In this document: positions 24,287 through 43,711 of the stretch, one piece after another | How the letters are laid out: each line of letters starts with the position of its first letter | Numbering within the stretch: the stretch's first letter is position 1 | From: Bacteroidales bacterium | Lineage (GTDB): Bacteria; Bacteroidota; Bacteroidia; Bacteroidales; F082 | DNA length: 64,000 nucleotides | Reading direction: 5' to 3' | NCBI GenBank assembly: GCA_017466405.1 | Contig: JAFTUF010000041.1 | Coordinates: forward strand, 10,119 to 74,118 | The notes under the pieces: generated by a model | The model's input: only the letters and a program-made list of their open reading frames with translations | Told to the model about the DNA's origin: nothing | The model's database searches: none | Program-made: the position numbers and the translations under genes

Positions 24287-24509
24287 ATAAACAAAACATA
24301 ATTTTAATGATATAAAAGGTTTGAAATAGACATATTGAAGTAAGTGTTTGCTTATTGCGAGTGATATTCTGAAAATCGCCAAATTAAAATGAATGACCAC
24401 CGCTGCATTAAGTAAGGCTTCGCACTTTGTGCGGACTTTCTTATTTGCGTGGTCGTGGGCGTTTGGCGATGCCCCAGAATAACGAGTAAGATTGTTTCGC
24501 ACTTTTTTT
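24287..24509 (+). ncRNA. structured RNA / 5' leader, copy A (unclassified family)
   Basis: Conserved core 24320-24509 aligns with 25093-25283. It has nested helices (atcgccaaa/tttggcgat, ttctg/cagaa, gaccac(c)gc/gcgtggtc, cgcac/gtgcg) and ends in ttcgcac + T7. Five compensatory pair changes separate it from copy B. Confidence 0.7.
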
Positions 24510-24539
24510 ATTGTCTAAAATCTAATAAGGAACAACGCC

Positions 24540-24698
24540 ATGACCACTGACGAAATCAAAAACCATATTACCATCTCAGAAGAAACAGAACGTGACAAGA
24601 CCGCTTACGAAAGCAGTGAAGAAATATTCGGAAGGATAACATATTTAGAGACAGAGATTTGTGAAGCCATGTTTGAATTCAAGACCAAGTTTATGTAA
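24540..24698 (+). CDS. small hypothetical ORF (52 aa) downstream of RNA copy A
   Basis: Hand-translated as MTTDEIKNHITISEETERDKTAYESSEEIFGRITYLETEICEAMFEFKTKFM*. The stop lies 1 nt before the next ATG. Below the track length cut-off, with no recognisable motif. Confidence 0.3.
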   Translation: MTTDEIKNHITISEETERDKTAYESSEEIFGRITYLETEICEAMFEFKTKFM

Positions 24699-24699
24699 T

Positions 24700-24969
24700 A
24701 TGGAAGAAATCGCCGAAACTGAAATCAAAGAATTTATTTCAATAATAATTGAAAAGAAGAGGCAGCAGTTAAAAGAATACAACCTCCTCACCCACTCCAT
24801 ATTTCATGAGATGTTCGGCGATTCTGCAGGATTTGAAGGAAGTGATGATAAGAAGAAACAGAATTATTCCGAGATTATTAAATCTATCAACAAGCAGAAA
24901 GAGCTGATAGAAAGGTCGATTGAGTTATTAAAAGTCGCTGAGTCTCCGAGTCTCCGAGTCACCAAGTAA
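24700..24969 (+). pseudogene. hsdS: remnant of a type I R-M specificity subunit (HsdS): conserved coiled-coil regions only, no target-recognition domains
   Basis: From ATG at 24700: ...EKKRQQLKEYNLLTHSIFHEMFGDS... matches the HsdS central conserved helix followed by FxEMFGDP. A second helix QKELIERSIELLK follows. The C-terminus runs into the repeat gtctccgagtctccgagtc. Confidence 0.5.
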
Positions 24970-25059: not shown

Positions 25060-25283
25060 AGTAATGAAAAGAGAAATATTATGAAGTAGAATTTTGAAAT
25101 AGACATAATGAAGTAAGTGTTTACTTATTGCCAGTGATGTTCGGAAAATCGCCAAAATGAAGAAATAGTCACTACTGCAATAGGAGATGCTTCGCACCAT
25201 GAGTGCGGACTTTCTTATTTGTGTGACTATAGGCGTTTGGCGATGCCTCCGAATATCAAATAAGGAAGGTTCGCACTTTTTTT
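25060..25283 (+). ncRNA. structured RNA / 5' leader, copy B, immediately upstream of the nine-gene operon
   Basis: Core 25093-25283, paralogous to 24320-24509. Helices agtcac(t)ac/gtgtgact, ttcgg/ccgaa, atcgccaaa/tttggcgat and cgcac/gtgcg. Ends in ttcgcac + T7, 38 nt before the ATG at 25322. Confidence 0.7.
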
Positions 25284-25321
25284 ATTGTGGGTAGTTGTAT
25301 AGAAAAACAAATCTATGTATT

Positions 25322-26674
25322 ATGGAAAAAAGATTTTTACTTGCTTTTTTGCTCATCATCCTTGCAGCTGGATGTAGCAGAAATCCGTCTCGGCAAAGCA
25401 GTGGTAGAGAAAATGTTGAGACAAAAGAAACACTAGAATTAGTTGAAAAAACGGATGTGGAAAATCCAGTAGTTAAACCCACACTCAAAGTCAAACCTGT
25501 AGTAAATATCTACATTGAGAATTCTGGTAGTATGAATGGATTTATAAATAAAACGTCCGAATATCAGGATGCTATTCAAAATATGGTAGTATGGTTAGAA
25601 TACTATTACGATACCGATAATATCAAACTACATTATATCAACGAGCGTGTCATTCTTAAAGAAAAACCAGTAAGTATACCTTTACCAGACTTTGCACAAC
25701 AAATGCTGTCTCCTGTAGAATTTAAATCAAATGGTAATGGCGCATCAACTAATCTTAATAGTATAATAGCGATGATATTAGATCGTACTGACGATAATAC
25801 AATATCTATATTGTTATCAGATAACATTTATTCTATTTCGGGTTCACAAACAGCACCTGTGTTGTTAGCTGAATGTAAAAATAAAACATTACAGGCTTTC
25901 TTGGGAAAAAGCAAGGAACTGAATATGCAACATCAACAAGCTTTATCCACAACAATCATTCAACTACATTCTCAATTTAGTGGTAATTATTGGGATTATA
26001 AACATCCTACTGGAAAAGCATCTCAACAGTTGAATTGTAAGAGACCTTATTATATGTGTGTTATTGGAGTTAATGATTTGATTTCTGATTTTAACAACAA
26101 ATTTAATGTCAATGAAATGAATGGTTACAGAAACAAATACACATTAACAGACATGGAAGAGTTGAATCCTAAATATGGTGTGCTAGTAAACACATATAAG
26201 ACAGGTAGATTTAGGAAAGTAAATGACACAACAATAAGAGAAGCTTCATTAGATGGACGTAAAAACATTTTTGCCTTGGCGATAGCTGTTGATTTGAGTG
26301 AAATACCTCTGAATGATGATGAAAAATGTGATACACGTTTATTTGAAGCAACAGAAGATTATGATATAGAGGAAATTATAAAGATAGATGATGCAACAAT
26401 ATCTCCAGTTGATATGCAAGTGACCAAGAATTGCACACACATAATAAAGGTTTCTACATCAAATAAAACTATTCCTGGTTTTACATTAAAAATGAAAAGA
26501 TTGTTGCCAAATTGGGTGGAAAATACATCATCTGTAGATGATACAAAAATAGGAACTGATACTGAAGAACAAAAACGGACATTTGGTTTAGCATACTTCG
26601 TCAATGGAATAAAAGAAGCATACGACAAAGGAGCTGATAATTATTTTGAAATTAACATTACAGTAAACAAATAA
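25322..26674 (+). CDS. lipoprotein with vWA-like domain (operon gene 1)
   Basis: Start taken at MEKRFLLAFLLIILAAGC (lipobox LAAGC). VVNIYIENSGSMNGFI resembles the vWA beta1-MIDAS motif DxSGSM with E for D, and ISILLSDNIYS resembles the vWA TDG strand. Confidence 0.6.
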   Translation: MEKRFLLAFLLIILAAGCSRNPSRQSSGRENVETKETLELVEKTDVENPVVKPTLKVKPVVNIYIENSGSMNGFINKTSEYQDAIQNMVVWLEYYYDTDNIKLHYINERVILKEKPVSIPLPDFAQQMLSPVEFKSNGNGASTNLNSIIAMILDRTDDNTISILLSDNIYSISGSQTAPVLLAECKNKTLQAFLGKSKELNMQHQQALSTTIIQLHSQFSGNYWDYKHPTGKASQQLNCKRPYYMCVIGVNDLISDFNNKFNVNEMNGYRNKYTLTDMEELNPKYGVLVNTYKTGRFRKVNDTTIREASLDGRKNIFALAIAVDLSEIPLNDDEKCDTRLFEATEDYDIEEIIKIDDATISPVDMQVTKNCTHIIKVSTSNKTIPGFTLKMKRLLPNWVENTSSVDDTKIGTDTEEQKRTFGLAYFVNGIKEAYDKGADNYFEINITVNK

Positions 26675-26684
26675 AAATAAGATT

Positions 26685-27110
26685 ATGATACAAGATTTTA
26701 TTGCAAACATTTACGAACTATGGGGAGCCGCTTATTTTGAAGGTTTCTCTGATGATATGTACAATATCAACGCCTATTTACCTATATTTTTATGGATGAT
26801 TATTTCCATAATTGTTGTAAGTGTAACATATTATTACATAATAAATCATTCGAGATTAAATCGGTGGTATTGGTGGGGATTATTTAATTTGGTCACATCG
26901 TTGTTGAATTTTGGGATAGCATGGGGAGCATCTCATGGAAAATTATTGGATTTATATAATAGTCAAAATATGGATTTCCCATATTCTGCGATGATAGAAT
27001 TTTTCCCATTTGCAGTTATCTGCTTTTGCTGGACATTCGTACTATATTTTGTCTTCTCTATGGTTATAAAATGGGGAAGTAAAAACTGTAAACATTCACC
27101 GTTTTTGTAA
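26685..27110 (+). CDS. small integral membrane protein, 3 predicted TM segments (operon gene 2)
   Basis: 141 aa. Hydrophobic stretches YLPIFLWMIISIIVVSVTYYYII, WYWWGLFNLVTSLLNFGIAWGA and FFPFAVICFCWTFVLYFVFSMVI. Confidence 0.7.
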   Translation: MIQDFIANIYELWGAAYFEGFSDDMYNINAYLPIFLWMIISIIVVSVTYYYIINHSRLNRWYWWGLFNLVTSLLNFGIAWGASHGKLLDLYNSQNMDFPYSAMIEFFPFAVICFCWTFVLYFVFSMVIKWGSKNCKHSPFL

Positions 27111-27127
27111 TTAAAAAAAGTAAAGAT

Positions 27128-28534
27128 ATGAGTAAAGTTTATGTATTTGGAATAGGAGGAACGGGTTCTCGTGTATTGAGATCCTTAACTTTGTTATTAG
27201 CATCAGGTGTTGATTGTGGTAACGACACAATAGTTCCCATAATTATTGATCCAGATGCTTCTGGCGGTGATTTGACAAGAACTGTCTCTCTGATGAGATG
27301 TTATAGTGATATAAGAAAACAACTTGTTTTTGATGGAACAAGTCAAAATGAGTTTTTTAAAACGGAGATAGATCAAGTTGTTCCCGGTTTCCAGTTGCCG
27401 TTAGATAATAAAGTACAAACATTGAAATTTCAAGATTATATGGGAGTAAGTTCTATGACTTCTAATAATCAATGCTTGATGTCAATGTTGTTCTCCGATA
27501 AAAACCTGAGTGCAAATATGAACGTCGGTTTTAAAGGGAATCCAAATATTGGTTCTGTTGTTTTAAATCAGTTTTCTCAATCAGAGGATTTCAAAGCATT
27601 TGCGAACAACTTTCAACAAGGCGATAGAATATTTATTATTAGTTCTATATTTGGAGGAACAGGAGCTAGCGGTTTTCCATTGTTACTTAAAACATTACGT
27701 AGCAATACAAACATTCCAAATTTTGCTTTAATCAACAATGCCATAATAGGTGGAATAACTGTTTTGCCTTATTTTAATGTAAAACAGGATAATAGCAGTG
27801 AAATTGATTCAACCACTTTCATATCAAAAACAAAGTCGGCATTGGCTTATTATGACAAAAATATAAGCGGCAACAATTCTATAGATGCACTATATTATGT
27901 GGCGGATGATATCAATAATGCTTATGATAACCATGAAGGTGGAGGAAATCAAAAGAATGATGCACATATGGTTGAGCTTATTTCAGCCTTAGCTATAATA
28001 GATTTCGTTAATAATATTAACAACAGAATAAATCCAACAATACATAAAGAATTTGGAATTAAAGATTTGCAAAATGGGGCTAATGATGTAATTCTTTCAG
28101 ATTTTGCAAAAGGAACCGAAGATATAATTAAAGATTCTTTGATAAGTATGTTCCTTTTTGCAAAATACAACAATAATTGTTTGGAAAAACAATACGAACA
28201 CCAGCCATGGGCAATAGACAGAAAACTGGATAGAGCGTTCTTTAGAGGCAGTTTCTACAAAAATATAGAAATGATTCAGACTGATTTCTTCGCTTGGTTA
28301 GGGGAATTATCATCTAATAAAAGAAAACTTACCATGTTTGAATTAGGTGATGACTGTGAATTGTTTAAATCAGTTAAAGATTATTCTCCCAAAAAGAGCT
28401 TTGGATTCACAAAAAATTATGCGTTGATTGACAAATGCCTTAATAAACAAGTCCAAAGCGGAACGAATAAGGAACAATTATACATAAACCTATTCTATAG
28501 TGCTTTAAAAGAAGTCGTATCACTAAAATTCTAA
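27128..28534 (+). CDS. tubulin/FtsZ-superfamily-like GTPase (operon gene 3)
   Basis: 468 aa. N-terminal VYVFGIGGTGSRVLRSL matches the FtsZ T1 G-box position. SSIFGGTGASGFPLL is close to the tubulin/FtsZ T4 signature GGGTG(S/T)G. No TM and no FtsZ-type C-terminal tail recognised. Confidence 0.7.
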   Translation: MSKVYVFGIGGTGSRVLRSLTLLLASGVDCGNDTIVPIIIDPDASGGDLTRTVSLMRCYSDIRKQLVFDGTSQNEFFKTEIDQVVPGFQLPLDNKVQTLKFQDYMGVSSMTSNNQCLMSMLFSDKNLSANMNVGFKGNPNIGSVVLNQFSQSEDFKAFANNFQQGDRIFIISSIFGGTGASGFPLLLKTLRSNTNIPNFALINNAIIGGITVLPYFNVKQDNSSEIDSTTFISKTKSALAYYDKNISGNNSIDALYYVADDINNAYDNHEGGGNQKNDAHMVELISALAIIDFVNNINNRINPTIHKEFGIKDLQNGANDVILSDFAKGTEDIIKDSLISMFLFAKYNNNCLEKQYEHQPWAIDRKLDRAFFRGSFYKNIEMIQTDFFAWLGELSSNKRKLTMFELGDDCELFKSVKDYSPKKSFGFTKNYALIDKCLNKQVQSGTNKEQLYINLFYSALKEVVSLKF

Positions 28535-28538
28535 AGTT

Positions 28539-31500
28539 ATGTCTAAAGTTTTCAGATTACATCAGGATAATAATACATTGATTGATTGGCAGCAATCACA
28601 ACCATATAGCACCAATGTTATAAATCAGATAAAAGACCCTAATGGAGCTACTTCAAGAAATGAAATCACTTCAATACCATCACCATTCGCAAGAATAGAC
28701 CTGGTAAAAAGTGCGTTTAAAGAAGTGAATATGTTAGGTCTTGACGGTAATACAATTTACCATAAAATGGTGTCAGATAGTTTGGACATTGGGCAAATAT
28801 TCTTTAATTATCCAAAATTTAAGAATCTTGTAAATGTTGTTTTTTGGGATAAGACTAACGATTTACAAGCTTTAAAGCAATCGACAATAACATCTCATAG
28901 AGTTGTTGGAGAAACACTTGAGATGTATATGCAACAAGATGGCAGTACATATAATTTCAATAATATGCAAAGAATATATATGCTGCAATACATTGGACCT
29001 CAATGCAAGATAAATGATATTATTGGTGCGACATCTCCATGCACATTGTTTTTTAGTTCCGCAAATGATTTATCAAGAATCTCAAATTACATATCCTTTG
29101 ATGGTAATGACAAACCATTTGACAACCAATATCAACCTTTATATAAACGTGATATTGAATATGTCAAATATTTATGTGCTTTAAGAGCATCTTATCCAAT
29201 GTTTGCTGTTGAATTTTCAGAAGTCAATGAATATATAAATCTTACAATAAATAAATTAGGACAAGATATAAATAATCAGGGATTTATTAATCAAATTAGC
29301 ACTTTTGATACTAGTACAATAAATAATTATACCAAACTAGTTGTTAATAACAATAACATTGATGTAATAAATGGCATAACATTATGTGAAGTGCCAAAAG
29401 TTCATGTAAAAAGTGATTTTGAGATTAATTCCACGATATTTGCAGGTGAACAAAAGCCGTTAGTTTTACCGGTTGAAAAAGGCAATCAATATTCTTCGTT
29501 GACTTATACATCTACAGTTTGGAATCCAAACAATTCAGCCCCGTATTTTGACGGCAATCCGTTGGCAAGAAGGACTTTGCCTTCCACAAGTGACGCTCAT
29601 CCATATCTCACAATTAGCGATTTCTTAGAAGATAACATCATTAAGATGCCTTATCGTATGAATGAAAAGGATTATTATGATGGTGGCTTTAACGCAATTA
29701 GTGATGAAAATGAATCATATTTATTGCCATTGAAGAAATTATTTTTTGATTTCTTTACGGTCGACGAGTTATTAGGGACTCTTCCTAACGGACAAAAGAT
29801 GTTCGAGTTTAGAAGTAATGCAGGAGGTATTACTGTAATTTTACGAATTCCTATTCAGAAGAACTATTGTGTTGAGTATAAAAGGATTTATTTGAACAAT
29901 AGTATTGCAGATATTTCAAAGAACTTAGGTGGTGTTATAATCAAGAAATTTGGTCTTGGTATTTTGCCACCCGTTAAGACAGATAATGAACTTTCATATT
30001 ACAGAATAGCGTTATTTGATAAAGGTGATAACAATATTACCTTAACACCATGCATGGGAAAAGATTCTGTTGCTGCTATCAATGTTGTTCATACTCCCAA
30101 AACAAATAAAACATCTGGCGTGGAATCATACATCATTGATAAACATTCTTTTGATAGGATTGAAGTATCAGTTGGTTCAAATATGGCAGTTTTGGTTCCT
30201 ATTTTAAGATCTGCGGTTGGAAATAGGAAATTTACTATTGCCATTGACTTTGGAACTACTAACACTCATATAGAGTACAGTAAAGACAATAATCCATCTT
30301 CTTCATTCTATATCAATACAAATGATATTCAAATCTCAAGATTACATATTGATTATACAGACATTGATATTGATACGTCATTCGACAGATATTTTATTCC
30401 TTCTGTAATTGACGGAGTCGAGTATGGTTATCCAATGAGAACTGTTCTTGCCGAAAGCAATTCAATTAGTTATAATAAACCGGTGTATTCAATGGCTCAT
30501 GCTCATGTTCCATTTAAATATGAGAAAGAAGCTTGTTCAAGATATTATTCTATTAAGACTAACTTAAAATGGTCTAACGAAGAAAGGAAAAGGGTTGAAT
30601 TATATATAGAAAATATTGTTATATTGTTAAGGAACAAAGTTTTGTTAAATGATGGAGACTTATCAAAGACCCAAATTAAATGGTTTTACCCGACAAGTAT
30701 GGTGCAGTATCAGATTGATGGACTGAAGAGAATATGGTGTGACCTATACAAAAAATATTTTGGTAGTGATGTTCAGAATGTTATTGGAATTCCAGAATCG
30801 ATAGCACCTTACAAATATTACAAAACTACACAAGGAGCTCAGTCTAGCGTATTAACAATTGATATTGGAGGTGAAACCAGTGATGTATTTGTAGTTGAAG
30901 ATTCAAAAGCAAAAATGATGTCATCTTTCCGTTTTGCGTCAAACGCAATTTTTGGAGATGCATTCGGATATAATTCTGATAATAATGGTTTCGTATTAGG
31001 GTATCTTGATAAATTCAAAACTATACTTAATGATAATGGATTAAACACATTATCAAATGCTCTTGATGATATTGTAGTTCAGAAAAAATCATCTGACATA
31101 GTTGCATTTTTTTATGCTTTATCCAATAATAAAGAGGTCAAGAAGAAGAATATCACAGCATTGGATTTTCAAGATAAATTATCCAATGACGATTGTTTGA
31201 AATATGTGTTTGTGATGTTCTATACTTCCTTGCTGTATTTTATCGCAAAAGAAATGAAATCAAAGGGACTTAGAATGCCATTGACGATAGCTTTTAGCGG
31301 AAACGGTTCAAATTCTATAAAGATTCTCTCCAATGATACTGTAACATTAAAGAAATATGCACAGATGATATTTGAAGATGTGTATGAAGAAAAATATGCA
31401 AAGGGAGAAATGTTAGATGTAATTTGTGAAGAAAACCCTAAAACCGCAACGTGTAAAGGTGGAATTCTAACAAACAACGATGATGTTGACTTTGATACAG

Positions 31501-31868
31501 ATGAATTAAAATACAATTTGTTAGGAATCAATGCTGTTGATACTATTGACAGTTTTAAGTATAGTGATGTTGACAATAATATCATAAATAAGGTTGTAAA
31601 TCAAGTGGAATCGATGATTGACTATGCCTTGTCTCCTGATAAAATCAAATTTTATATAAAATATTTTGGAGTTAATCAAGGTAAGTCAAATTCCATCAGC
31701 GAATTGACAAAAATTAAACTTCATGAATATGCAAAATCAGCATTAGATGCAAGAAAAGAAGAACTCAAAACATGGAATGCTGATGAAACTTGCAGCTTAG
31801 AAGAAACATTGTTCTTCTATCCTATAATCGGTATGTTAAACAATCTTGCAAGAGAAATAACAAAATAA
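28539..31868 (+). CDS. 1109-aa protein: unknown N-terminal half plus C-terminal actin/Hsp70-like (ASKHA) ATPase (operon gene 4)
   Basis: FTIAIDFGTTNTHIEY (phosphate-1, compare DnaK IDLGTTNS), VLTIDIGGETSDVFVV (phosphate-2 DxGGGTxD) and LTIAFSGNGSNSIKIL (adenosine motif). The first 550 aa or so have no recognisable motif. Confidence 0.75.
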   Translation: MSKVFRLHQDNNTLIDWQQSQPYSTNVINQIKDPNGATSRNEITSIPSPFARIDLVKSAFKEVNMLGLDGNTIYHKMVSDSLDIGQIFFNYPKFKNLVNVVFWDKTNDLQALKQSTITSHRVVGETLEMYMQQDGSTYNFNNMQRIYMLQYIGPQCKINDIIGATSPCTLFFSSANDLSRISNYISFDGNDKPFDNQYQPLYKRDIEYVKYLCALRASYPMFAVEFSEVNEYINLTINKLGQDINNQGFINQISTFDTSTINNYTKLVVNNNNIDVINGITLCEVPKVHVKSDFEINSTIFAGEQKPLVLPVEKGNQYSSLTYTSTVWNPNNSAPYFDGNPLARRTLPSTSDAHPYLTISDFLEDNIIKMPYRMNEKDYYDGGFNAISDENESYLLPLKKLFFDFFTVDELLGTLPNGQKMFEFRSNAGGITVILRIPIQKNYCVEYKRIYLNNSIADISKNLGGVIIKKFGLGILPPVKTDNELSYYRIALFDKGDNNITLTPCMGKDSVAAINVVHTPKTNKTSGVESYIIDKHSFDRIEVSVGSNMAVLVPILRSAVGNRKFTIAIDFGTTNTHIEYSKDNNPSSSFYINTNDIQISRLHIDYTDIDIDTSFDRYFIPSVIDGVEYGYPMRTVLAESNSISYNKPVYSMAHAHVPFKYEKEACSRYYSIKTNLKWSNEERKRVELYIENIVILLRNKVLLNDGDLSKTQIKWFYPTSMVQYQIDGLKRIWCDLYKKYFGSDVQNVIGIPESIAPYKYYKTTQGAQSSVLTIDIGGETSDVFVVEDSKAKMMSSFRFASNAIFGDAFGYNSDNNGFVLGYLDKFKTILNDNGLNTLSNALDDIVVQKKSSDIVAFFYALSNNKEVKKKNITALDFQDKLSNDDCLKYVFVMFYTSLLYFIAKEMKSKGLRMPLTIAFSGNGSNSIKILSNDTVTLKKYAQMIFEDVYEEKYAKGEMLDVICEENPKTATCKGGILTNNDDVDFDTDELKYNLLGINAVDTIDSFKYSDVDNNIINKVVNQVESMIDYALSPDKIKFYIKYFGVNQGKSNSISELTKIKLHEYAKSALDARKEELKTWNADETCSLEETLFFYPIIGMLNNLAREITK

Positions 31869-32641
31869 TGAGTATGAGAAAAGTAATAATATGTATGTTG
31901 ATGGTTTTTGTTTCCATAACAACAATATCTTGTGGTAAAATTAGTCGAAAGGATAAAGTAACACATCCTTCGGAACAATTAAAACAAAAATCAAGAAAAT
32001 CAGAGTCTGGTAATAACCATTTCCTATTGTGGAGCGCATTGATTATTTCTTTGTTTGCTAATGCTGGTTATACCTATGTTTTGTATAACAAAACAAAAGA
32101 ACGTACAGAATCTAGATTACAGAGGTTGAGGAATAATGTCGATAAGTTGGAAAATGATTTTATTTTAGAAAAATCACAACAACATGCAAGAGAAACCACT
32201 CGTAATGGCAGTTCTACTCGATACACATTGATAGACGGCGATATAAACTTAATTGTTGACAGAGTACTTGAATGCATAAACATTGACAAAACCCATGAAA
32301 ATACTTATGATGATGTGGGTAAAAATCCACCGCAACCCAAAACGATAAAGAAATTATATGCCGAAGCAGCTAACAAAGATAATGAGTTTTTTAGAAAGGT
32401 TACAGAATATCAAAGTGAAGACACAATTTATGTTTTGTCATTGATAGATGATAACCGTGCTGAATTTGTTATATGTGATAGCGCCAAAAGCACCATTATA
32501 GGTTGTGAGGATTATTTAAGGAATGTTTGCGATATTATAGGTAGCGGACGCAATATTGAAAATTGTGAACCGGGTATCGCCCAAAAAACAAGCGATGGTT
32601 CTTGGAAGGTTATCGAAAAAGCTAATGTAAAATTCGTGTAA
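31868..32641 (+). CDS. membrane/lipoprotein-like protein with coiled-coil segment (operon gene 5)
   Basis: The ATG at 31868 overlaps the TAA of gene 4 (TAATG). MSMRKVIICMLMVFVSITTISC is a signal/lipobox. Second hydrophobic segment FLLWSALIISLFANAGYTYVLY, then a charged helical region. Confidence 0.6.
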   Translation: MSMRKVIICMLMVFVSITTISCGKISRKDKVTHPSEQLKQKSRKSESGNNHFLLWSALIISLFANAGYTYVLYNKTKERTESRLQRLRNNVDKLENDFILEKSQQHARETTRNGSSTRYTLIDGDINLIVDRVLECINIDKTHENTYDDVGKNPPQPKTIKKLYAEAANKDNEFFRKVTEYQSEDTIYVLSLIDDNRAEFVICDSAKSTIIGCEDYLRNVCDIIGSGRNIENCEPGIAQKTSDGSWKVIEKANVKFV

Positions 32642-32642
32642 A

Positions 32643-34379
32643 ATGGGACACTATTTAATAATAGGAATCATCGTTTTGCTAATTATTGGAGTTCAGATAT
32701 ACTTCTTTAGCAAAACATCAAAAGAGATAAGAAAATTCTCTAACATTTTTCCTAAATCAACAGACAACTTGTATGCTCATGATTCGGAAATTTATGTAAG
32801 AGATTATGAAAATAAGATAGATTACGATATAGATGATAAACTTGATAAATATATCAAGAAACATGATTCAGTTTTTGAAAGAATAATATCGAGCTTAAAT
32901 ACTTATTTGCGAAAAAATAAAGGCGCTGCAAGCGACTATCATCTTATGAAAGATATAGTTGAAAGAAACTGTGATGCCAAAGAAAATGAAATAGATACTC
33001 AAATTCCGACTCCATTATATACAGGTTTGATGGGAACTGTTTTAGGAATCATTGTCGGTGTTGCATTCTTACTTTTTAGTGGTGGATTGTCAGCTTTGTT
33101 GGATAGCAATTATGATTTGATCAATAGCACAACAAATGTAAATGAGATTGTAGGCAGAGAATCTGCACAAGATATTAAAGATGAACATATAATCATCATT
33201 AAAGAAGGTGAATTGATAGATTCTGAACATAAAGCTAGCAAATTGATTGATTATGCGAAGAGAAATAATACCGAAATAAAATTAAAGTCAGATAATTCTG
33301 GAAGTAAAGGTGTTTCAGCTTTATTGAGTGGTATTGCATTAGCAATGATAGCTAGTTTTGTTGGGATTTTGCTTACTACAATAGCGTCATATCGTTTTAA
33401 AGGAGCAAAAAGCAAGGAAGAAGAAGGCAAAGATAAATTCTTAAGTTGGATTCAATCGGAATTGTTGCCGCAATTATCATCCGATGTTTCAGGTACCCTC
33501 GTGAAAATGGGGCAGAATCTCAGAGATTTTAACACTACATTCTCTGAAAATACAAAAGAACTCAGTGCAACATTAGACAAGGTAAATGAATCGTACAGAG
33601 GTCAAGCTGAAGTACTTCAGTCAATAAAAGAATTGAGAATAAATGAAATAGCCACTGCAAACATCACTATTTATGATAAGTTAAAAGATAGTACTCAAGA
33701 ATTAGGAGATGTAACACAACATATTTCAGAATATTCAGAGCAGTTGTCAAAACTTGGAAAGTATCTAAAGAATTCTGAAAAATATCTGATTCAAGTTAAA
33801 GAACTTAACGAGAAACTTGATGAAGGTGAAGAAAGAATGAAAATGATAGAACGACTTGGACAATTCTTTGAGACTGAATTACAACAAATTCAAAATAGAA
33901 AGTCGGAAATGACAAAGGCTGTCGGTATTGTTGATGATGCATTACAAGAAGCTTTAATAAAGATGCAGGAAAATGTCGGCAGACAATTCAATGAACTTGA
34001 AAAATCATCTGCTATACAACAAGACATTCTGCAAGAAAAACTTAAAGAAACGACTGCACTTGTTGATGAACTGAAAAATCTCACAGCAGTTAAAGCAAGT
34101 TTGGATAAAATTGAGAAATCAACTGAAAAAACATCGAATGAGCAAAATAAACGTTTGGACACACTTATATCATCAATAAATATATTAACGTCTGAAATCA
34201 AGAAAGGTAATTCTGTAAATATAGGATTTAATAGCGGTGGTGCTCCCGTAGTAACTAAAAAAATGCCTAAATGGGCAAAAGTGCTGTTAATAATAGGCGG
34301 CTCTTTAGTAAGTCTTACTTGCTTGATAATAATATCTGTTATAGTTCTAAAAGTCCTAAAAGATATAAATATTATTTAA
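32643..34379 (+). CDS. MotA/TolQ/ExbB-like ion-channel protein with long coiled-coil tail and C-terminal TM anchor (ZorA-like; operon gene 6)
   Basis: 578 aa. PLYTGLMGTVLGIIVGVAF and GIALAMIASFVGILLTTIASY resemble the two conserved MotA/ExbB helices (GLLGTVxG; A-x-x-T-T-x-x-G). About 270 aa of heptad-rich sequence follow, then MPKWAKVLLIIGGSLVSLTCLIIISVIVL. Confidence 0.65.
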   Translation: MGHYLIIGIIVLLIIGVQIYFFSKTSKEIRKFSNIFPKSTDNLYAHDSEIYVRDYENKIDYDIDDKLDKYIKKHDSVFERIISSLNTYLRKNKGAASDYHLMKDIVERNCDAKENEIDTQIPTPLYTGLMGTVLGIIVGVAFLLFSGGLSALLDSNYDLINSTTNVNEIVGRESAQDIKDEHIIIIKEGELIDSEHKASKLIDYAKRNNTEIKLKSDNSGSKGVSALLSGIALAMIASFVGILLTTIASYRFKGAKSKEEEGKDKFLSWIQSELLPQLSSDVSGTLVKMGQNLRDFNTTFSENTKELSATLDKVNESYRGQAEVLQSIKELRINEIATANITIYDKLKDSTQELGDVTQHISEYSEQLSKLGKYLKNSEKYLIQVKELNEKLDEGEERMKMIERLGQFFETELQQIQNRKSEMTKAVGIVDDALQEALIKMQENVGRQFNELEKSSAIQQDILQEKLKETTALVDELKNLTAVKASLDKIEKSTEKTSNEQNKRLDTLISSINILTSEIKKGNSVNIGFNSGGAPVVTKKMPKWAKVLLIIGGSLVSLTCLIIISVIVLKVLKDINII

Positions 34380-34380
34380 T

Positions 34381-35058
34381 ATGAAAAAGAATAAAAAAGA
34401 ATCATTCTTTTGGACAAGCTATTCAGATTTGATGACCAGTATGTTTTTTATAATGCTGGTGTTGTTTGTTGTTACAGTAGCCTTGCTTCACAAGGAAATG
34501 GTCAAGATTGGTGAGGAAAGAGAGGCAATGCGTATTGAGAGAGATATTACGCAGGCACAACTTGATAAGATAAAAGAAATTCAGGAGGCAACACAAACCA
34601 TTGATACCACATACTTTAGATTCGATAAAAATTTTAATAGACATACGTTGAGAAACATAACAGTCTCTTTTAATAGATCTAGTTCTAACATAAACGACAT
34701 TCCTCAAGATGTTAGGAATACTTTAGCCGAAGCAGGAAAAGCAATAAGAGAATCTTTGTTAGAAGCACAAAATAAAACTCCGGAAGCAAAATTTTTACTG
34801 ATAATTGAAGGTCAAACATCAAACGATGGTTATGTTGCTAATTACGAGCTCAGTTATAGCAGAGCCCTAAGTCTTGTGAAATTCTGGTCAAGTCAAAAGA
34901 TTTATTTTGACGAAGCAGGTGGTATACATAATTGTGAAGTTATTATTTCAGGTAGCGGAAGGTCTAGTCAATTTAGAGAATTGCCTGATAACAAATATAA
35001 TACTAAAAATCAAAGATTTGTAATTCATATCATTCCAAAGCCGGGAGAAATAAAATGA
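34381..35058 (+). CDS. MotB/OmpA-like stator partner (ZorB-like; operon gene 7)
   Basis: 225 aa. N-terminal FWTSYSDLMTSMFFIMLVLFVV is the MotB-type TM plug with the conserved Asp. C-terminal LLIIEGQTSNDGYVANYELSYSRALSLVKFW is an OmpA-like peptidoglycan-binding motif. Confidence 0.78.
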   Translation: MKKNKKESFFWTSYSDLMTSMFFIMLVLFVVTVALLHKEMVKIGEEREAMRIERDITQAQLDKIKEIQEATQTIDTTYFRFDKNFNRHTLRNITVSFNRSSSNINDIPQDVRNTLAEAGKAIRESLLEAQNKTPEAKFLLIIEGQTSNDGYVANYELSYSRALSLVKFWSSQKIYFDEAGGIHNCEVIISGSGRSSQFRELPDNKYNTKNQRFVIHIIPKPGEIK

Positions 35059-35810
35059 TAAAGAAACTGATATTATGCATTTGCGTACTAGTGCTTTTCT
35101 TTTCTTGTGTAAGAAGACGAGAAGGAGTACATAACTCCAATTCAAGAAATCATTATGCTCAAGAACGAGTTAGAACAAGTAGTAATAGACACAAACCGGT
35201 GAGAACACAAGAAACCAGTCCGATTCAACCTGTAAATAGGGCGGATAACAAAATATTAAATGGTTCTCAGATATTTGAAAAATACAACCCTGCAGTTTTT
35301 ATGATTTTTACTTCTGACGGGTGGAACGATTATCAAGGTTCTGGCTTCTTTGTCACGTCATCTGGAATTGGTGTTAGCAATTATCATGTTTTTGAAGGTA
35401 CGACAGTCGGGTATGAAACAATTAAATTATCAAATGGACAAACATATAAAATAAGAAATGTCATCGCTAAGAGTAAAGATGATGATTTCATTGTGTTTCA
35501 GGTAGAATCTAAAGGAGTTTCGTTTAAATATATACCTATGGGAATAAAGAATCCAAAAGTAGGCGAAAAAGTCTATACAATAGGCAGTCCGTTAGGTTTG
35601 GAAAACACATTCTCGTCAGGAGAAATTTCACAGTTGAGAGAGGATAATTTAATTCAAATCAATGCTCCTATAGATCATGGCAGTAGTGGTGGTGCACTTA
35701 TAAATGAATATGGAGAAGTCATTGGCATTACTACAGCAGGCATAGGAAGTTCAGGAGCAAACCTAAATTTTGCAGTTGATATTGATGTTGTGAGACCGTA
35801 TGTGAGATGA
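35055..35810 (+). CDS. lipoprotein trypsin-like (S1/DegP-fold) serine protease (operon gene 8)
   Basis: ATGA overlap with gene 7. Lipobox LVLFFSC. Catalytic triad context SNYHVFEG (His), DDDFIVFQV (Asp) and DHGSSGGALIN (Ser). Confidence 0.82.
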   Translation: MIKKLILCICVLVLFFSCVRRREGVHNSNSRNHYAQERVRTSSNRHKPVRTQETSPIQPVNRADNKILNGSQIFEKYNPAVFMIFTSDGWNDYQGSGFFVTSSGIGVSNYHVFEGTTVGYETIKLSNGQTYKIRNVIAKSKDDDFIVFQVESKGVSFKYIPMGIKNPKVGEKVYTIGSPLGLENTFSSGEISQLREDNLIQINAPIDHGSSGGALINEYGEVIGITTAGIGSSGANLNFAVDIDVVRPYVR

Positions 35811-35880
35811 AAAAGTTTAGAAATCCTTGAACTAATATTAATATTTATATATCAATGAAGATTCTAAATAATAACCTATT

Positions 35881-36261
35881 ATGAAAACATTTCTCAAAAT
35901 ATTAGCATTCGCTATCTCTATCCCATTGTTTATTTCGGCAACTCCAATAGATTCACAAGATACTGAGACTTACACTATCTATAAAATTTATGAAAAGATT
36001 GAACTCGACAATGGTTCAAAAGTCATTGATAGTTGGGGCAATGTCGAAGATGCAAAAGCCGTTTTGGTTCCAACTGAAATAGACCGCGGAAGATATAGTA
36101 TCGAAATTACACGCATCAGCAGTAACTTGTATCAGATATGCGGAACATCGCTCTATATTGAAACAAAATACTGCTATGAATACGCTACGAGAGAAGAGGT
36201 GCTTTTAAACATCACATCTACTTTCGGATATGACCTCGGAGAAGTGATTTTCTTTGATTGA
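35881..36261 (+). CDS. small secreted protein, unknown function (operon gene 9)
   Basis: 126 aa with signal peptide MKTFLKILAFAISIPLFISA. No motif recognised. It lies 70 nt after gene 8. Confidence 0.55.
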   Translation: MKTFLKILAFAISIPLFISATPIDSQDTETYTIYKIYEKIELDNGSKVIDSWGNVEDAKAVLVPTEIDRGRYSIEITRISSNLYQICGTSLYIETKYCYEYATREEVLLNITSTFGYDLGEVIFFD

Positions 36262-36443: not shown

Positions 36444-36842
36444 GGTGGAGCTGGAGGGAGTCGAACCCTCGTCCAAACAAGGAACACCCATGCTTTCTAC
36501 ATGCTTATTTTGTTGTTGTTTTTCGAATCATGCAAGGAAACAAACACCCTAAACATAACCTTATCTCCTAAACTTCGCTATGCGGCCGGAGCTTCCGCAT
36601 CGCTATCCCGAAATTGATGAGCACCTCGTACCCGGACCGGAATCAGGAAAGTCCATCCGCGAGATGTCCCGTTCATCCACCTTGTGGACGAATTAAGCTT
36701 CAATCTACTGTGCTTCGATTAAGCAGCGAGAGCGTAGTTATTTTCGCCAATTAATTTTTCGCAGCCAAGATTTATGAGCTTCACTGCAAGGCTCAGCATG
36801 CTTACATGACCATTCTACAAGCTGTCAAAACCGGTCAACCCC
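36444..36842 (-). ncRNA. ssrA: tmRNA
   Basis: The reverse complement starts GGGGTTGACCGGTTTTGACAGC and ends GGACGAGGGTTCGACTCCCTCCAGCTCCACC. G3-U70 in the acceptor stem. Tag reading frame GGCGAAAATAACTACGCTCTCGCTGCTTAA encodes GENNYALAA*. Confidence 0.95.
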
Positions 36843-39637: not shown

Positions 39638-40075
39638 TTAAAATTGTTTTATGGCACGACATTCCTTCGCATTATAAACAGCAATGCTAAGATAAGAATT
39701 ATAATCTTTAGTGTTTTGAGTAAAAAAGGCCCCACATTTTAATTTGTTTGCGAGAACATATTGAATATTATCCTCCATATCATCTTCTTCCATAAGCATC
39801 GATCTGTTGATATCATCTTTGGTAAAATCAATAATATCAACCTTAGCAAGGATATTACCTACATAATCTTTTATCTGATTCTTGTTTATTTTATGATGCT
39901 GAAAAATAGATACAAATTGAGCAATACTCAAAGAAGAGACATAAATCTTTTTACCAATTAATGATGTAAGATAATTCCAGCATCTTCTTTCATCTTCATA
40001 CTTTTTATCATTCGAGTATGCTCCTACTAGTATATTGGTATCAATAAAAATATGGTTTTGGTTCGATTTCATCAT
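39638..40075 (-). CDS. PIN-domain protein (VapC-like toxin)
   Basis: 145 aa. N-terminal IFIDTNILV with the acidic Asp, and later acidic residues (MEEDDMEDN). ATGA overlap with the upstream small ORF. Confidence 0.7.
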   Translation of the reverse strand: MMKSNQNHIFIDTNILVGAYSNDKKYEDERRCWNYLTSLIGKKIYVSSLSIAQFVSIFQHHKINKNQIKDYVGNILAKVDIIDFTKDDINRSMLMEEDDMEDNIQYVLANKLKCGAFFTQNTKDYNSYLSIAVYNAKECRAIKQF

Positions 40076-40242
40076 AATATTATACTTCTATACCTCTCTA
40101 ATTCCTGTTCATTAAAAAGTTCCATATAATTCCAAGCCCATACCTTCAAAGCCAAATCTGTAACACGTTCTTTCTTCAACTCAGCTTTCTGAAGAAGAAG
40201 ATTTATCATCTCCTCCTGTAATTTCTTTTCTTGTGTGCTCAT
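40072..40242 (-). CDS. small protein (56 aa), putative antitoxin partner of the PIN protein
   Basis: Hand-translated as MSTQEKKLQEEMINLLLQKAELKKERVTDLALKVWAWNYMELFNEQELERYRSIIL*. ATGA overlaps at both ends. Below the track cut-off. Confidence 0.55.
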   Translation of the reverse strand: MSTQEKKLQEEMINLLLQKAELKKERVTDLALKVWAWNYMELFNEQELERYRSIIL

Positions 40243-40454
40243 GACCATTCCTCCTTATGCGCGTTATTGTAGTCTATTATCGGTTTGAAATATTCATATT
40301 CTTCTTCAGTGAGAAGATCTAAATTGTTCATCGACCATCTTATTAAAGCTCGATTAATAACATCTGATTTTTTTGTGCCTGTTTTCTTGAGTAGCACCTC
40401 TATAGCCTCATCGACTAACTCTTTCGATTTTTTAATTTCTTCTTTAGTTGCCAT
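40239..40454 (-). CDS. small protein (71 aa), paralog of the 56-aa ORF
   Basis: From ATG at 40454: MATKEEIKKSKELVDEAIEVLLKKTGTKKSDVINRALIRWSMNNLDLLTEEEYEYFKPII... It shares the pattern (V)xxxAL..W....(L)..E.E.E.(Y/F)..II with the 56-aa ORF. Confidence 0.55.
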   Translation of the reverse strand: MATKEEIKKSKELVDEAIEVLLKKTGTKKSDVINRALIRWSMNNLDLLTEEEYEYFKPIIDYNNAHKEEWS

Positions 40455-40621
40455 AAATTTAATTTTTGCCTTGTGTTGCAAATGTAAACATAATAAATCA
40501 TTTACGAAACATATAACAATAATATTTTTGCAACAAATTTGATTTTTCTAAATTATTACAGAAATATGATGTTTTTGTCTTAAAATTAATTAACAATTAG
40601 CACCAAACAAAAAAAGGAGCG

Positions 40622-41863: not shown

Positions 41864-42643
41864 ATGACGAAGGAAATATTTATAGATTTGTTAAGGAATG
41901 CTGTTGTCAATGAATTTGAAAAACACATAAGTACTGATAATGGAGAATGGATTGTAAAAGGTTTTATAGACATATACAAAAACATCTACACGATTTCATC
42001 TGACACCAAAGTAATCTCCAAAATCATTGAGCTCTATATCTTTCCTAAGATCTTGGAATTTGCAAATAAAAACAATTTAGAAATTGAATTAACCAAAGAA
42101 CAGAATTTTTATCCTGACATAACATTTAAAGATAACGAAGGAAACCTTTTCGCTGTTGATTTGAAAAGCAGTTACAGAAAAAACGAAAGTCACATCAACG
42201 GCATGACATTGGGCGCATTCACTGGATATTTTCGCGACAGAAATAGTTTAAAAAACATAACTCACCCCTACAACGATTATAAAGCTCATATCGTCCTTGG
42301 CGTCATTTACGATTCTGTATTGGATATAGATGAAAGGAAATCTTATTCTATAGAACAATTATCAGATATAACTTCTGTGATTAGAAATTTTCAGTTTTTT
42401 GTTCAAGAAAAATGGAAAATTGCTACGGACAGACCAGGCAGTGGCAACACGAAAAATATAGGTTCTGTCAGTAACATCAATGATTTGATAAACGGCAAAG
42501 GTGTATTCGCAGAGTTGGGAGAAGACATTTTTAATGATTATTGGATGTACTATTTAACCACGGATATGGCAAAAATGGCTGAACTTCCCAAACCATTCTA
42601 CAGAAACATTACCGAATATAAGCAATTCAAAAACATAGAATAA
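41864..42643 (+). CDS. EcoRV-family type II restriction endonuclease
   Basis: 259 aa. SSDTKVISKIIELY, EQNFYPDITF...FAVDLKSSY (PD...D-x-K) and FVQEKWKIATDRPGSGNTKNIGS align closely with my recollection of EcoRV (GSDTKVLSTIFELF; QQNHYPDFTL...IAIDIKTTY; FLQDKWVIAGDLAGSGNTTNIGS). Confidence 0.85.
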   Translation: MTKEIFIDLLRNAVVNEFEKHISTDNGEWIVKGFIDIYKNIYTISSDTKVISKIIELYIFPKILEFANKNNLEIELTKEQNFYPDITFKDNEGNLFAVDLKSSYRKNESHINGMTLGAFTGYFRDRNSLKNITHPYNDYKAHIVLGVIYDSVLDIDERKSYSIEQLSDITSVIRNFQFFVQEKWKIATDRPGSGNTKNIGSVSNINDLINGKGVFAELGEDIFNDYWMYYLTTDMAKMAELPKPFYRNITEYKQFKNIE

Positions 42644-43711
42644 ATGGATTCCCAACTTTCATTGTTTGCAGAAGTTATTCCAACTAAAGCTAAGTTTCCC
42701 TCCACACGATATCAGGGCAGCAAACTGAAATTCGTCGACTGGATTTGGCAATGTATAAAAGATATTCCTTTTTATACGATGTTAGATGCCTTTGGAGGAA
42801 CCGGATGTATTTCCTTTAAAATGAAAGAAGAAGGGAAAAAAGTAACCTACAACGACATTCTTCCTTTTAACCATATTATCGGGAAAGCCTTAATCGAAAA
42901 CAATAGTACGTTGTTATCAGATTATGATATCGAAAACATTTTAAGAATTCATAAGGATATATCATATCCTGACTTTATCGAAAAAACTTTCAAAGACATT
43001 TACTATACTGACGAAGAGAACCATTGGCTTGACATTGTGACAACCAATATTAAGTTTATGGACGATGAATACAAACAGGCAATAGCCTATTTCGCACTGT
43101 TTCAATCATGTATTATAAAACGACCATATAATTTATTTCACAGAAAGAATTTATATGTTCGGATGCAAGATGTAAAAAGAAGCTTTGGCAATAAAAAGAC
43201 ATGGGACACTCCATTTGAAACGCATTTCCGTAAATTTGTTCAAGAAGCAAATTCAGCTGTTTTCAGCAACAATGGGTCATGTGTTTCGATAAATCAGAAT
43301 GTATTCGACATCAATCAGAAGTTCGATTTGATTTATATTGACACACCATATATCAATAGCGACGGAATTGGAATCGATTATGCTGACTTTTATCATTTTT
43401 TAGACGGACTTACAAACTACGACACATGGAGCTCTCAGATTGATTATAGCAGCAAACATCTACGATTAAAGAGAACCCCCAATGATTGGAATAATTCTGA
43501 AACTATTTACAATGCTTTTGAAAATTTATTCGGTAAATTTTCAGATTCCATCTTGGTTATCTCTTATCGTTCAAATGGAATCCCGACAATTGAAGAACTT
43601 ACTGATATGTTAAAGAAAAACGGAAAAGACGTTAAAATTTATCAAAGTTCCGAAATAAAATACGTATTAAGCAACAAACAATCTAATGAAGTTTTAATTG
43701 TAGCTCAGTAA
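42644..43711 (+). CDS. Dam-class (D12) N6-adenine DNA methyltransferase
   Basis: N-terminal RYQGSKLKFVDWI, SAM motif DAFGGTGC, catalytic IYIDTPY (DPPY variant). The ATG directly follows the endonuclease TAA. Confidence 0.88.
   Translation: MDSQLSLFAEVIPTKAKFPSTRYQGSKLKFVDWIWQCIKDIPFYTMLDAFGGTGCISFKMKEEGKKVTYNDILPFNHIIGKALIENNSTLLSDYDIENILRIHKDISYPDFIEKTFKDIYYTDEENHWLDIVTTNIKFMDDEYKQAIAYFALFQSCIIKRPYNLFHRKNLYVRMQDVKRSFGNKKTWDTPFETHFRKFVQEANSAVFSNNGSCVSINQNVFDINQKFDLIYIDTPYINSDGIGIDYADFYHFLDGLTNYDTWSSQIDYSSKHLRLKRTPNDWNNSETIYNAFENLFGKFSDSILVISYRSNGIPTIEELTDMLKKNGKDVKIYQSSEIKYVLSNKQSNEVLIVAQ

Follow-up and report, generated by a model that had tools for sequence, protein, structure and literature searches.

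Rotary motors of the 5:2 superfamily are known to power flagella, transport by the Ton and Tol systems, gliding together with type IX secretion, and the immunity conferred by Zorya. The flagellar A subunit, MotA, crosses the membrane with four helices and touches FliG through a large cytoplasmic loop. In the Zorya systems, which are mainly found in Proteobacteria, the B subunit ZorB (structures 8QYD and 8VVN) combines a membrane helix bearing an essential aspartate in the motif FW.S..DLMT, a helical linker and an OmpA-like peptidoglycan-binding domain, and the A subunit ZorA displays three membrane helices with a Gly-Thr motif in transmembrane helices 2 and 3 (TM2/TM3), the last of which extends into a long helical tail that projects free into the cytoplasm (PMC11946911). 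A second described assemblage is that of the FtsZl1 (Tubulin_2) operons, which show a patchy distribution and place the gene of an FtsZ-like GTPase beside those of an OmpA-domain protein, of membrane proteins and of a vWA protein; in FtsZl1 itself, the GTPase domain is followed by a long coiled coil and by a C-terminal region of alpha helices, and a membrane-associated multiprotein machine was proposed for these operons in 2010 (PMC2875224). The gene pair analysed here, g6-g7, unites features of both. It lies at positions 32643-35058 of a 64,000-nucleotide (nt) stretch of DNA from a gut Bacteroidales bacterium (GCA_017466405.1, contig JAFTUF010000041.1), hereafter called the window, to which all positions refer unless another locus is named. 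By analogy with the systems just mentioned, g6-g7 would be a genuine but very divergent pair of the 5:2 motor superfamily, tethered to the membrane by its tail and embedded in a conserved cassette of eight genes that most likely serves envelope-triggered phage defence, a reading that we consider probable and hold with moderate confidence.

The interval 32643-35058 consists of exactly two + strand open reading frames (ORFs), separated by one base, which belong to a row of nine closely packed + strand genes, g1-g9, occupying positions 25295-36261. In GenBank, the proteins of the cassette are termed 'hypothetical', g8 being the sole exception, and g6 is recorded as MBQ8761005.1 from a Bacteroidales metagenome-assembled genome (MAG). 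The pair and its parts are as follows:

32643..34379, + strand: g6, A subunit of 578 residues, putative member of the MotA/ExbB/TolQ/ZorA superfamily
33021..33374, + strand: g6 TM2 (residues 127-145), periplasmic insert (146-225) and TM3 (226-244), predicted ion-channel hairpin
33375..34283, + strand: g6 cytoplasmic helical tail (residues 245-547), from AlphaFold2 helices and coiled-coil type profile matches
34284..34352, + strand: g6 C-terminal membrane anchor TM4 (residues 548-570), from hydropathy, AlphaFold2 and conservation, with P-K-W-x-K just before it
34381..35058, + strand: g7, ZorB-type B subunit of 225 residues, with the Asp16 codon at nt 34426-34428

As judged from its sequence, g7 is clearly a ZorB-type B subunit. 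Its N-terminus (FWTSYSDLMTS, including Asp16) aligns residue for residue with the ZorB motif FW.S..DLMT and, in the same layout as ZorB, precedes one membrane helix (residues 17-35), a helical linker and an OmpA-like domain (residues ~90-215) with the motif G.T..DG...N..LS..RA. In 77 g7 homologues, conservation is 95% or higher both at Asp16 and in the LS.RA core, in agreement with an earlier note on this DNA, which had credited g7 with a conserved membrane-helix Asp and an OmpA-like domain. The PADLOC ZorB1 profile matches g7 with an E-value of 6e-15 over residues 2-212, and among the sequences of solved structures g7 is best matched by the ZorB chains of Shewanella (8vvn_B) and E. coli (8qyd_F), ahead of Campylobacter MotB. 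The reference ZorA and ZorB for profile-profile comparison were taken from a genuine type I Zorya locus on a Nitrosospira plasmid (L084), which carries zorA, zorB, an EH-signature gene and an SNF2 gene. With the 77 g7-family members, hhalign gave 97.4% (E 1e-11) for this ZorB, compared to 56% for E. coli MotB, which likewise bears an Asp in its membrane helix and an OmpA-like domain and with which the 5:2 architecture is presumed to be common, and compared to 2.1% for ExbD and 0.2% for TolR, thereby confirming that the partner of g6 is not of the ExbD/TolR type, as the note had stated. The NCBIfam ZorB1 model, for its part, reaches 33.8 bits on g7 compared to an equivalog cutoff of 400, so that g7 is to be regarded as a relative of ZorB rather than as an orthologue.

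As for the A subunit, Kyte-Doolittle windows reveal four hydrophobic segments in g6 (residues 5-23, 127-145, 226-244 and 550-568). The strings that the earlier note had read as MotA/ExbB-type helices, followed by a long helical tail ending in a hydrophobic segment, are present at residues 128-136 (GLMGTVLGI), 241-248 (GILLTTIA) and 547-569 (VLLIIGGSLVSLTCLIIISVIVL). In the AlphaFold2 model of g6, obtained with 43 homologues as input and showing a mean predicted local distance difference test (pLDDT) of 72, the membrane helices span residues 2-33, 123-146, 219-280 and 543-574 (the last with a pLDDT of ~85), the third running on into a tail built of helices 219-280, 282-329, 337-391 and 398-520. 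Three N-terminal helices and, as described in the note, a long helical tail are thus found, the tail comprising ~300 residues compared to ~500 in ZorA (~380-500 in two type I ZorAs examined) and matching coiled-coil type proteins in profile searches. The Lys/Arg distribution, read off the sequence, places the N-terminus outside, the loop 24-126 inside, residues 146-225 outside, the tail inside and the last eight residues outside again. TolQ and ExbB, the closest solved folds, share with g6 the three helices, the outward N-terminus and a membrane-proximal cytoplasmic helical domain; however, they possess neither the long tail nor the fourth helix, and their ExbD/TolR-type partners are devoid of an OmpA-like domain.

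A strongly conserved signature of g6 is located in its predicted channel hairpin. Across 190 sequences, the TM2-TM3 motif P-x-P-L-Y-x-G-L-x-G-T-x-x-G-I ... A-M-x-x-S-x-x-G is 99-100% conserved, with G128, L129, G131, T132, G135, A234, M235, S238 and G241 being invariant. Thr132, conserved in 100% of these sequences, aligns in hhalign with the Gly-Thr of TM2 in the Nitrosospira ZorA and would be the counterpart of Thr147 of E. coli ZorA (PMC11946911). The segment 245-340, at the beginning of the tail, is constant in length across the 190 homologues. In comparison with close relatives, the tail is the most conserved region of g6 (88-96%), indicating that it is not a dispensable appendage, and the periplasmic insert is the least conserved one (56-74%). 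This insert (residues 146-225, window 33078-33317), of about 80 residues, is modelled as strands plus a helix with a pLDDT of 92-95, and is limited to the close subfamily, most homologues having ~20 residues at that point.

Regarding the position of g6 among the A subunits, hhalign in local mode gave 53% (E 1.4e-4) for the TM2-TM3 region of the g6 family against the Nitrosospira ZorA and 56% against E. coli TolQ, compared to ~5-6% for ExbB and MotA. The value of only 6% for MotA distinguishes the pair from MotA-MotB, as does the gene content of the cassette, where the note's statement that no flagellar genes surround the pair is borne out. Tail-less N-domains match the PADLOC ZorA profiles in up to 8 of 20 family members, with a best E-value of 3e-5, and the eight best Foldseek matches of the g6 model are all TolQ/ExbB, with probabilities of 0.96 to 1.0 and target TM-scores of 0.43-0.52. 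These data point to g6 as a divergent member of the MotA/ExbB/TolQ/ZorA superfamily that is no closer to ZorA than to TolQ. The ZorAB-likeness proposed in the note is supported, with the caveat that g6 is no more than a distant relative, for which ZorA scores no better than TolQ; what carries the label 'ZorAB-like' is therefore chiefly g7, through the ZorB profiles and hhalign, together with the common plan of three membrane helices followed by a long tail.

What sets g6 apart from ZorA is the tip of its tail, which is free in ZorA but re-enters the membrane via a fourth helix in g6. The C-terminal hydrophobic segment is not a chance feature but a conserved fourth membrane helix, detected by both hydropathy and AlphaFold2. 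A hydrophobic segment lies no more than 40 residues from the C-terminus in 119 of the 120 top-scoring database homologues, which extend down to ~35% identity; the remaining one appears truncated. An exhaustive profile search with the tail-less N-domain retrieved 1084 cluster representatives (50% identity) at E <= 1e-3, of which 512 at <= 1e-30. In a set of 127 proteins, full-length among the best 150 representatives and mutually below 50% identical, a terminal helix is found within 60 residues of the end in 109 and a fourth helix followed by a longer extension in five, thus 114 in total, and it is absent in the other 13. About eight of these 13 TM4-less members finish in basic residues whose hydrophobic moment is high and which may form an amphipathic helix replacing TM4 as membrane attachment, so that the conserved trait looks like attachment of the tail tip to the membrane; two of the 13 were looked up and both lie within the same cassette type. 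Besides, a P-[KR]-W-x-K motif occurs at the cytoplasmic edge of TM4 in ~70% of the 190 sequences. The earlier note had regarded its proposal as vulnerable to a C-terminal segment that was absent or non-conserved in homologues, and to best matches to TolQ/ExbB combined with a downstream ExbD/TolR gene: what was found is this fourth helix in the great majority of representatives and, although g6 folds nearest to TolQ/ExbB, a ZorB-type partner.

The second feature of the pair is its fixed company, which consists of the following genes:

25295..26674, + strand: g1, 459-residue lipoprotein with an invariant Cys27 and an invariant E-N-S-x-S motif
26685..27110, + strand: g2, 141-residue protein with two membrane helices, found in 65/82 loci
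27128..28534, + strand: g3, 468-residue divergent GTPase of the tubulin/FtsZ superfamily
28539..31868, + strand: g4, 1109-residue protein whose C-terminal half is an actin/MreB/Hsp70-fold ATPase
31868..32641, + strand: g5, hypervariable membrane protein of ~255 residues
35055..35810, + strand: g8, 251-residue exported trypsin/HtrA-like serine protease, whose start overlaps the g7 stop
35881..36261, + strand: g9, 126-residue exported protein, found in the closest relatives only (3 loci)

Relatives of g6 were found in 190 of 185,579 genomes (one genome per species), and the 80 loci retrieved are, as named in their records, all from Bacteroidota, save three from probably mis-binned MAGs, in contrast to the mainly proteobacterial Zorya. 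The hosts include Bacteroidales, Prolixibacteraceae, Saprospiraceae, Chitinophagales, Pedobacter, Dyadobacter and Flavobacteriaceae. Gene counts per locus were made with iterated local profiles in 82 related loci: the order g1-g2-g3-g4-g5 (in one or two copies)-g6-g7(-g8) is kept in ~64-70 of them, most of the others being cut by contig ends, and the same arrangement was seen in three loci picked via g4 instead of g6. The pair is genetically coupled in a fixed manner to a tubulin-like and an actin-fold NTPase. Where Zorya associates its motor with ZorC, D, E, F or G, the cassette thus contains a tubulin-like GTPase, an actin-fold ATPase, membrane proteins and lipoproteins, and a periplasmic protease; none of the Zorya effectors, namely ZorC/ZorD (type I), ZorE (type II) and ZorF/ZorG (type III), was found by PADLOC among g1-g9, for which reason the pair is not considered a Zorya system.

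The association also exists in partial forms. On a plasmid of Picosynechococcus sp. PCC 8807 (NZ_CP016489.1, L095 4026-12649), a core without g6, g7 and g8 encodes homologues of g1 (E 8.5e-9), g3 (9e-51) and g4 (1.4e-33), a three-helix protein at the g2 position and two g5-like proteins, the sizes being 409, 155, 509, 1100, 302 and 326 residues in g1-g2-g3-g4-g5-like order. This core is followed by a TM2-domain coiled-coil protein, and similar core matches were obtained on two further Picosynechococcus plasmids and one Gloeothece plasmid. Conversely, lone g6-g7 pairs with the terminal helix occur in rumen Bacteroidales (L046, L056, L059 and L060, at ~9950-12100 in each), where no g1-g5 genes were found within 10 kb. 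A cousin A-B pair from Parabacteroides distasonis (NZ_OY725823.1, L083 10523-14645), whose A subunit is 24% identical to g6 and without terminal helix and whose B subunit is 53% identical to g7, is preceded by a 419-residue DUF4433 protein and a 222-residue unknown protein; the element also carries integrase, PD-(D/E)XK, AAA and toprim genes, and looks like a further uncharacterised combination of motor and effector. Since the A-B pair is thus found beside differing partner genes, it appears to be a portable module, in the same way as ZorAB across the Zorya types.

In terms of gene content, the cassette resembles the FtsZl1 operons, with which it shares a divergent FtsZ-like GTPase (T1 and T4 loops), an OmpA-domain protein and membrane proteins. 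The g3 family displays the invariant loops T1 (GIGGTGSR), T3-like (GFKGNPNIG) and T4 (FGGTGASGFP); 19 of 20 members are hit, in each case below threshold, by the Pfam model Tubulin and as many by Tubulin_2, and FtsZ and CetZ are the only PDB sequence matches of g3. Nevertheless, g3 and its homologues are 461-520 residues long, and g3 (468 residues) differs from FtsZl1 in being without the coiled-coil and alpha-helical C-terminal regions; no coiled-coil type match to g3 was obtained in general profile scans, no dedicated coiled-coil predictor having been run. The assignment of g4 relies on an AlphaFold2 model (pLDDT 86.9, predicted template modelling score 0.75) in which residues ~560-1109 adopt an actin/MreB/Hsp70 fold with the motifs DFGTTNT, DIGGxTxD and FSGNGS. 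Foldseek returned 254 PDB matches at E <= 1e-3 with MreB as the best one at 1.4e-8, and the g4 family profile matches MreB, Hsc70 and FtsA at the phosphate-2 motif; residues ~50-560 form alpha/beta domains to which no family was assigned. The nearest prior work is the 2010 FtsZl1 paper, in which 'OmpA-like' neighbours were noted but the motor was not recognised: it makes no mention of a MotA-type partner, of an actin-fold protein, or of the OmpA protein as a MotB/ZorB-type subunit (PMC2875224). In addition, neither a ZorAB-type pair whose tail is anchored in the membrane nor its coupling to tubulin-like and actin-like proteins was found described in our literature searches. In one locus (L098 15578-19423), an FHA-domain protein and two Ser/Thr kinase-FGE-sulfatase fusions are encoded directly after the cassette, which is reminiscent of the protein kinases found beside FtsZl1 by Makarova and Koonin (PMC2875224).

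Of the remaining genes of the cassette, g1 was found in 64 of the 82 loci, and it is the first gene of the cassette every time. Its E-N-S-x-S motif resembles a vWA metal ion-dependent adhesion site, and a later S-D is also present; however, the vWA fold is not confirmed by Pfam, which gave no vWA match on 20 members, nor by a profile search against PDB sequences, which gave no match. The g5 protein combines a lipobox-like N-terminus, a second hydrophobic segment, a coiled coil and a C-terminal domain. Between the window and the two closest genomes its identity amounts to only 42-46%, compared to 73-90% for all the other cassette genes. Other loci contain g5 once or twice, and it may be a specificity or target-facing component. 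Immediately after g7 in 54 of the 82 loci comes g8, which matches Pfam Trypsin_2 (6e-22) and carries no PDZ domain. Finally, a gene for a non-specific endonuclease, which may be an optional effector, adjoins the cassette on the same strand in ~7 loci, mostly directly after g7 or g8:

L096 14276-15010 and L097 3688-4524, cassette strand: DNA/RNA non-specific endonuclease, found with Pfam Endonuclease_NS
L007 16361-17200, L039 13847-14659 and L045 13166-13900, cassette strand: DNA/RNA non-specific endonuclease, found with phmmer
L053 13759-14595 and L055 13113-14006, cassette strand: DNA/RNA non-specific endonuclease, found with phmmer

The genomic setting is that of an island. The cassette stretch has 31-33% G+C, compared to ~39% for the rest of the window, and the island, located downstream of a tRNA-Arg gene, is abutted by a transfer-messenger RNA (tmRNA) gene at 36444-36842 on the - strand, an arrangement likewise seen in the two closest genomes. 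Outside the window, tmRNA genes directly beside the cassette were located at L003 14684-15082, L004 15462-15859 and L011 541-937, in the window's lineage and, independently, in a distant Prolixibacteraceae locus, where the tmRNA gene stands beside g1. This adjacency in separate lineages suggests repeated insertion at a classic genomic-island site, and the cassette looks horizontally mobile. No integrase was seen within the island, and no g6 relative was found in a phage collection. A search for an island-free allele, through contigs sharing an identical flanking response-regulator protein, showed that every one of them carries the cassette. Defence-type genes in the flanks comprise TIR and TPR genes in retrieved loci, as well as CHAT, helicase, PRTase and DprA genes at the locus of a TM4-less variant.

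In the light of the solved motors of the 5:2 rotary superfamily (MotAB, ExbBD, TolQR, ZorAB; PMC11946911, PMC11890865), g6 and g7 would form an inner-membrane, ion-conducting A5B2 complex, fixed to peptidoglycan by the OmpA-like domain of g7. Asp16 would bind the ion, and ions would pass by Asp16 and Thr132 in a channel lined by the TM2-TM3 hairpin, their flow being possibly gated by the state of the cell wall or envelope. The A ring would thereby rotate or twist, and turn or strain a membrane-tethered tail structure, in which the five tails would be arranged as a cage or as arches under the membrane. Being part of the A subunit, TM4 can travel with the ring in the bilayer; it may also be held by a static partner (g2 or g5), in which case torque would be stored as strain. 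Through the resulting tail signal, the g3 and g4 NTPases would be recruited to the membrane, switched or powered, in the manner of ZorAB acting on ZorC and ZorD. A role in conflict, that is, against phages, is regarded as the most likely one since g5 is hypervariable, the cassette lies on an island and hydrolases are appended to it. More speculatively, the cassette may possibly represent a new immune or envelope-response machine, in which a ZorAB-like rotor with its membrane-tethered tail cage would control, mechanically or allosterically, polymerising tubulin-like and actin-like NTPases where the envelope is damaged, with g5 providing specificity and the protease or nuclease acting as effectors; we offer this fuller scheme only tentatively.

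Several observations weigh against the reading of g6-g7 as a motor in a defence cassette. At the level of the superfamily, the Pfam model MotA_ExbB (PF01618) reaches 19.2 bits at TM3 of g6 for a cutoff of 22.9, none of the NCBIfam models relevant to such a subunit matched g6, including any ZorA model, and the Foldseek E-values of the TolQ/ExbB matches are only ~1e-2. Profiles of full-length g6 and of its N-domain, searched against PDB sequences, retrieved only coiled-coil proteins and LacY and no motor subunit; sequence alone thus cannot place g6, which is why the fold search and the profile-profile comparison were used. No single test puts g6 in the superfamily at a curated threshold, although the weak signals mutually agree. 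Stoichiometry, ion flow and rotation are proposed by analogy with the solved 5:2 motors. The tail, which may be a hairpin or an arch, has a confidence of 45-70 in the g6 model; a hairpin test, in which the lengths of the two tail halves were compared over 190 homologues, showed no positive correlation, a result that favours neither form. The defence role is circumstantial: PADLOC has no match to g1-g5 or g9 and matches only a protease model with g8, and the AbiE, restriction-modification and candidate-system matches obtained in a PADLOC scan of 125 flanking ORFs have no baseline for comparison. Moreover, the lone g6-g7 pairs stand among housekeeping genes (riboflavin synthase, DPP-IV, QueG), and the position of the cassette is the same in three related genomes of the window's lineage, which fits vertical descent as well as mobility.

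Part of these observations would be readily accommodated if the cassette were a membrane-remodelling, vesicle or envelope-transport machine, in which the proton-driven pair powers tubulin-like or actin-like filaments. This alternative, which survives best but which we consider unlikely, would account for the housekeeping neighbourhood of the lone pairs, for the constant position in the three related genomes and for the absence of PADLOC matches to g1-g5, and it agrees with the presence of an actin-fold ATPase. The Myxococcus Agl-Glt motor, which works with MreB and a GTPase, offers a loose analogy. A machine of this kind is what Makarova and Koonin surmised for the FtsZl1 operons. The combination of a tubulin-like GTPase, an OmpA-type protein and many membrane proteins is also that of these operons (PMC2875224), from which, however, g3 departs by lacking their coiled-coil and C-terminal architecture. 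A distribution as sparse and patchy as 190 of 185,579 species representatives, the low-GC island at the tmRNA gene, the hypervariability of g5, the appended protease and sometimes nuclease, and the defence-type genes in several flanks all argue in favour of the conflict role instead.

Less probable is a Tol/Ton-like energiser, in which proton flow would drive a periplasmic or outer-membrane process, for example by way of the g1 lipoprotein or the g8 protease, the tail having no signalling function. The g6 model being nearest to TolQ and ExbB, the hhalign value for TolQ being as good as that for ZorA, and the periplasmic proteins encoded in the cassette would fit this possibility; however, g7 is not of the ExbD/TolR type and carries a peptidoglycan-binding domain as in ZorB and MotB, and no TonB/TolA domain was found in g1-g9 with Pfam and NCBIfam, in line with the earlier note, which had argued against a Tol or Ton role. 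The tail being the most conserved part of g6 between close relatives likewise speaks against a dispensable appendage.

It is also improbable that the likeness to motors is superficial, g6 then being a coiled-coil scaffold tethered at its two ends and g7 a peptidoglycan anchor, with neither ion conduction nor rotation. Every similarity score of g6 lies below threshold, and a tail fixed at both ends might conflict with free rotation; yet TM4 could move with the A subunit in the bilayer, the membrane-helix Asp of g7 is invariant and its surroundings follow the ZorB motif residue for residue, and the invariant Thr/Gly-rich TM2-TM3 motif of g6 in 190 sequences is what one would expect at a channel interface rather than in a passive anchor. 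Lastly, an ordinary mis-annotated Zorya system of type I, II or III, which the ZorB and ZorA profile matches and the three helices plus long tail of g6 would evoke, is very hard to credit and is refuted by gene content, given the conserved and entirely different partner genes and the absence of any ZorC, D, E, F or G neighbour in PADLOC, to which are added the low NCBIfam ZorB1 score, the lack of a ZorA model match and a tail tip anchored in the membrane rather than free as in ZorA (PMC11946911).

Should the more speculative scheme of a new immune or envelope-response machine be correct, this would be the first 5:2 motor with an output element anchored at both ends, and no earlier defence-type system would have combined the two prokaryotic cytoskeletal folds. 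Each new output of a 5:2 motor has so far revealed a new route from ion flow to work, and here a large family (1084 clusters at 50% identity) presents a doubly tethered output and fixed tubulin-like and actin-like partners, neither of which was found described in the literature searched. With such a design one can examine whether a ZorA-type tail has to rotate in order to signal or whether torsional strain suffices. It also provides a first functional handle on the FtsZ-like operons reported in 2010 without experimental follow-up. Should the cassette be defensive, it would constitute a common immune system of gut Bacteroidales missed by the catalogues, only g6, g7 and g8 having matches in PADLOC.

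Besides the island itself, the window contains two defence-type loci past the end of the cassette and a structured repeat in front of it:

39638-40481: PIN-domain toxin gene with a small upstream partner ORF, ~3.4 kb past the cassette end
41864-43711: EcoRV-family restriction endonuclease and D12-class adenine methyltransferase, ~5.6 kb past the cassette end
24320..24514, + strand: structured repeat, copy 1, ~195 nt, upstream of small ORFs at 24541-24969
25093..25288, + strand: structured repeat, copy 2, ending 7 nt before the g1 start

A scan for sigma-70 promoters and terminators gave counts no higher than in shuffled sequence, the method being ill-suited to Bacteroidota. The two repeat copies are direct repeats (D1 and D2), 773 nt apart and 83-90% identical. 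No Rfam match was obtained for the structured repeat, whose RNA is predicted to form one long hairpin with a minimum free energy of -74.3 kcal/mol (z = -8.1) and a U-run at its end. A core 16-mer of the repeat is also found upstream of g1 in four other loci (L003, L004, L045 and L058), and the element may be a leader or attenuator RNA, or else an inverted repeat resembling a miniature inverted-repeat transposable element.

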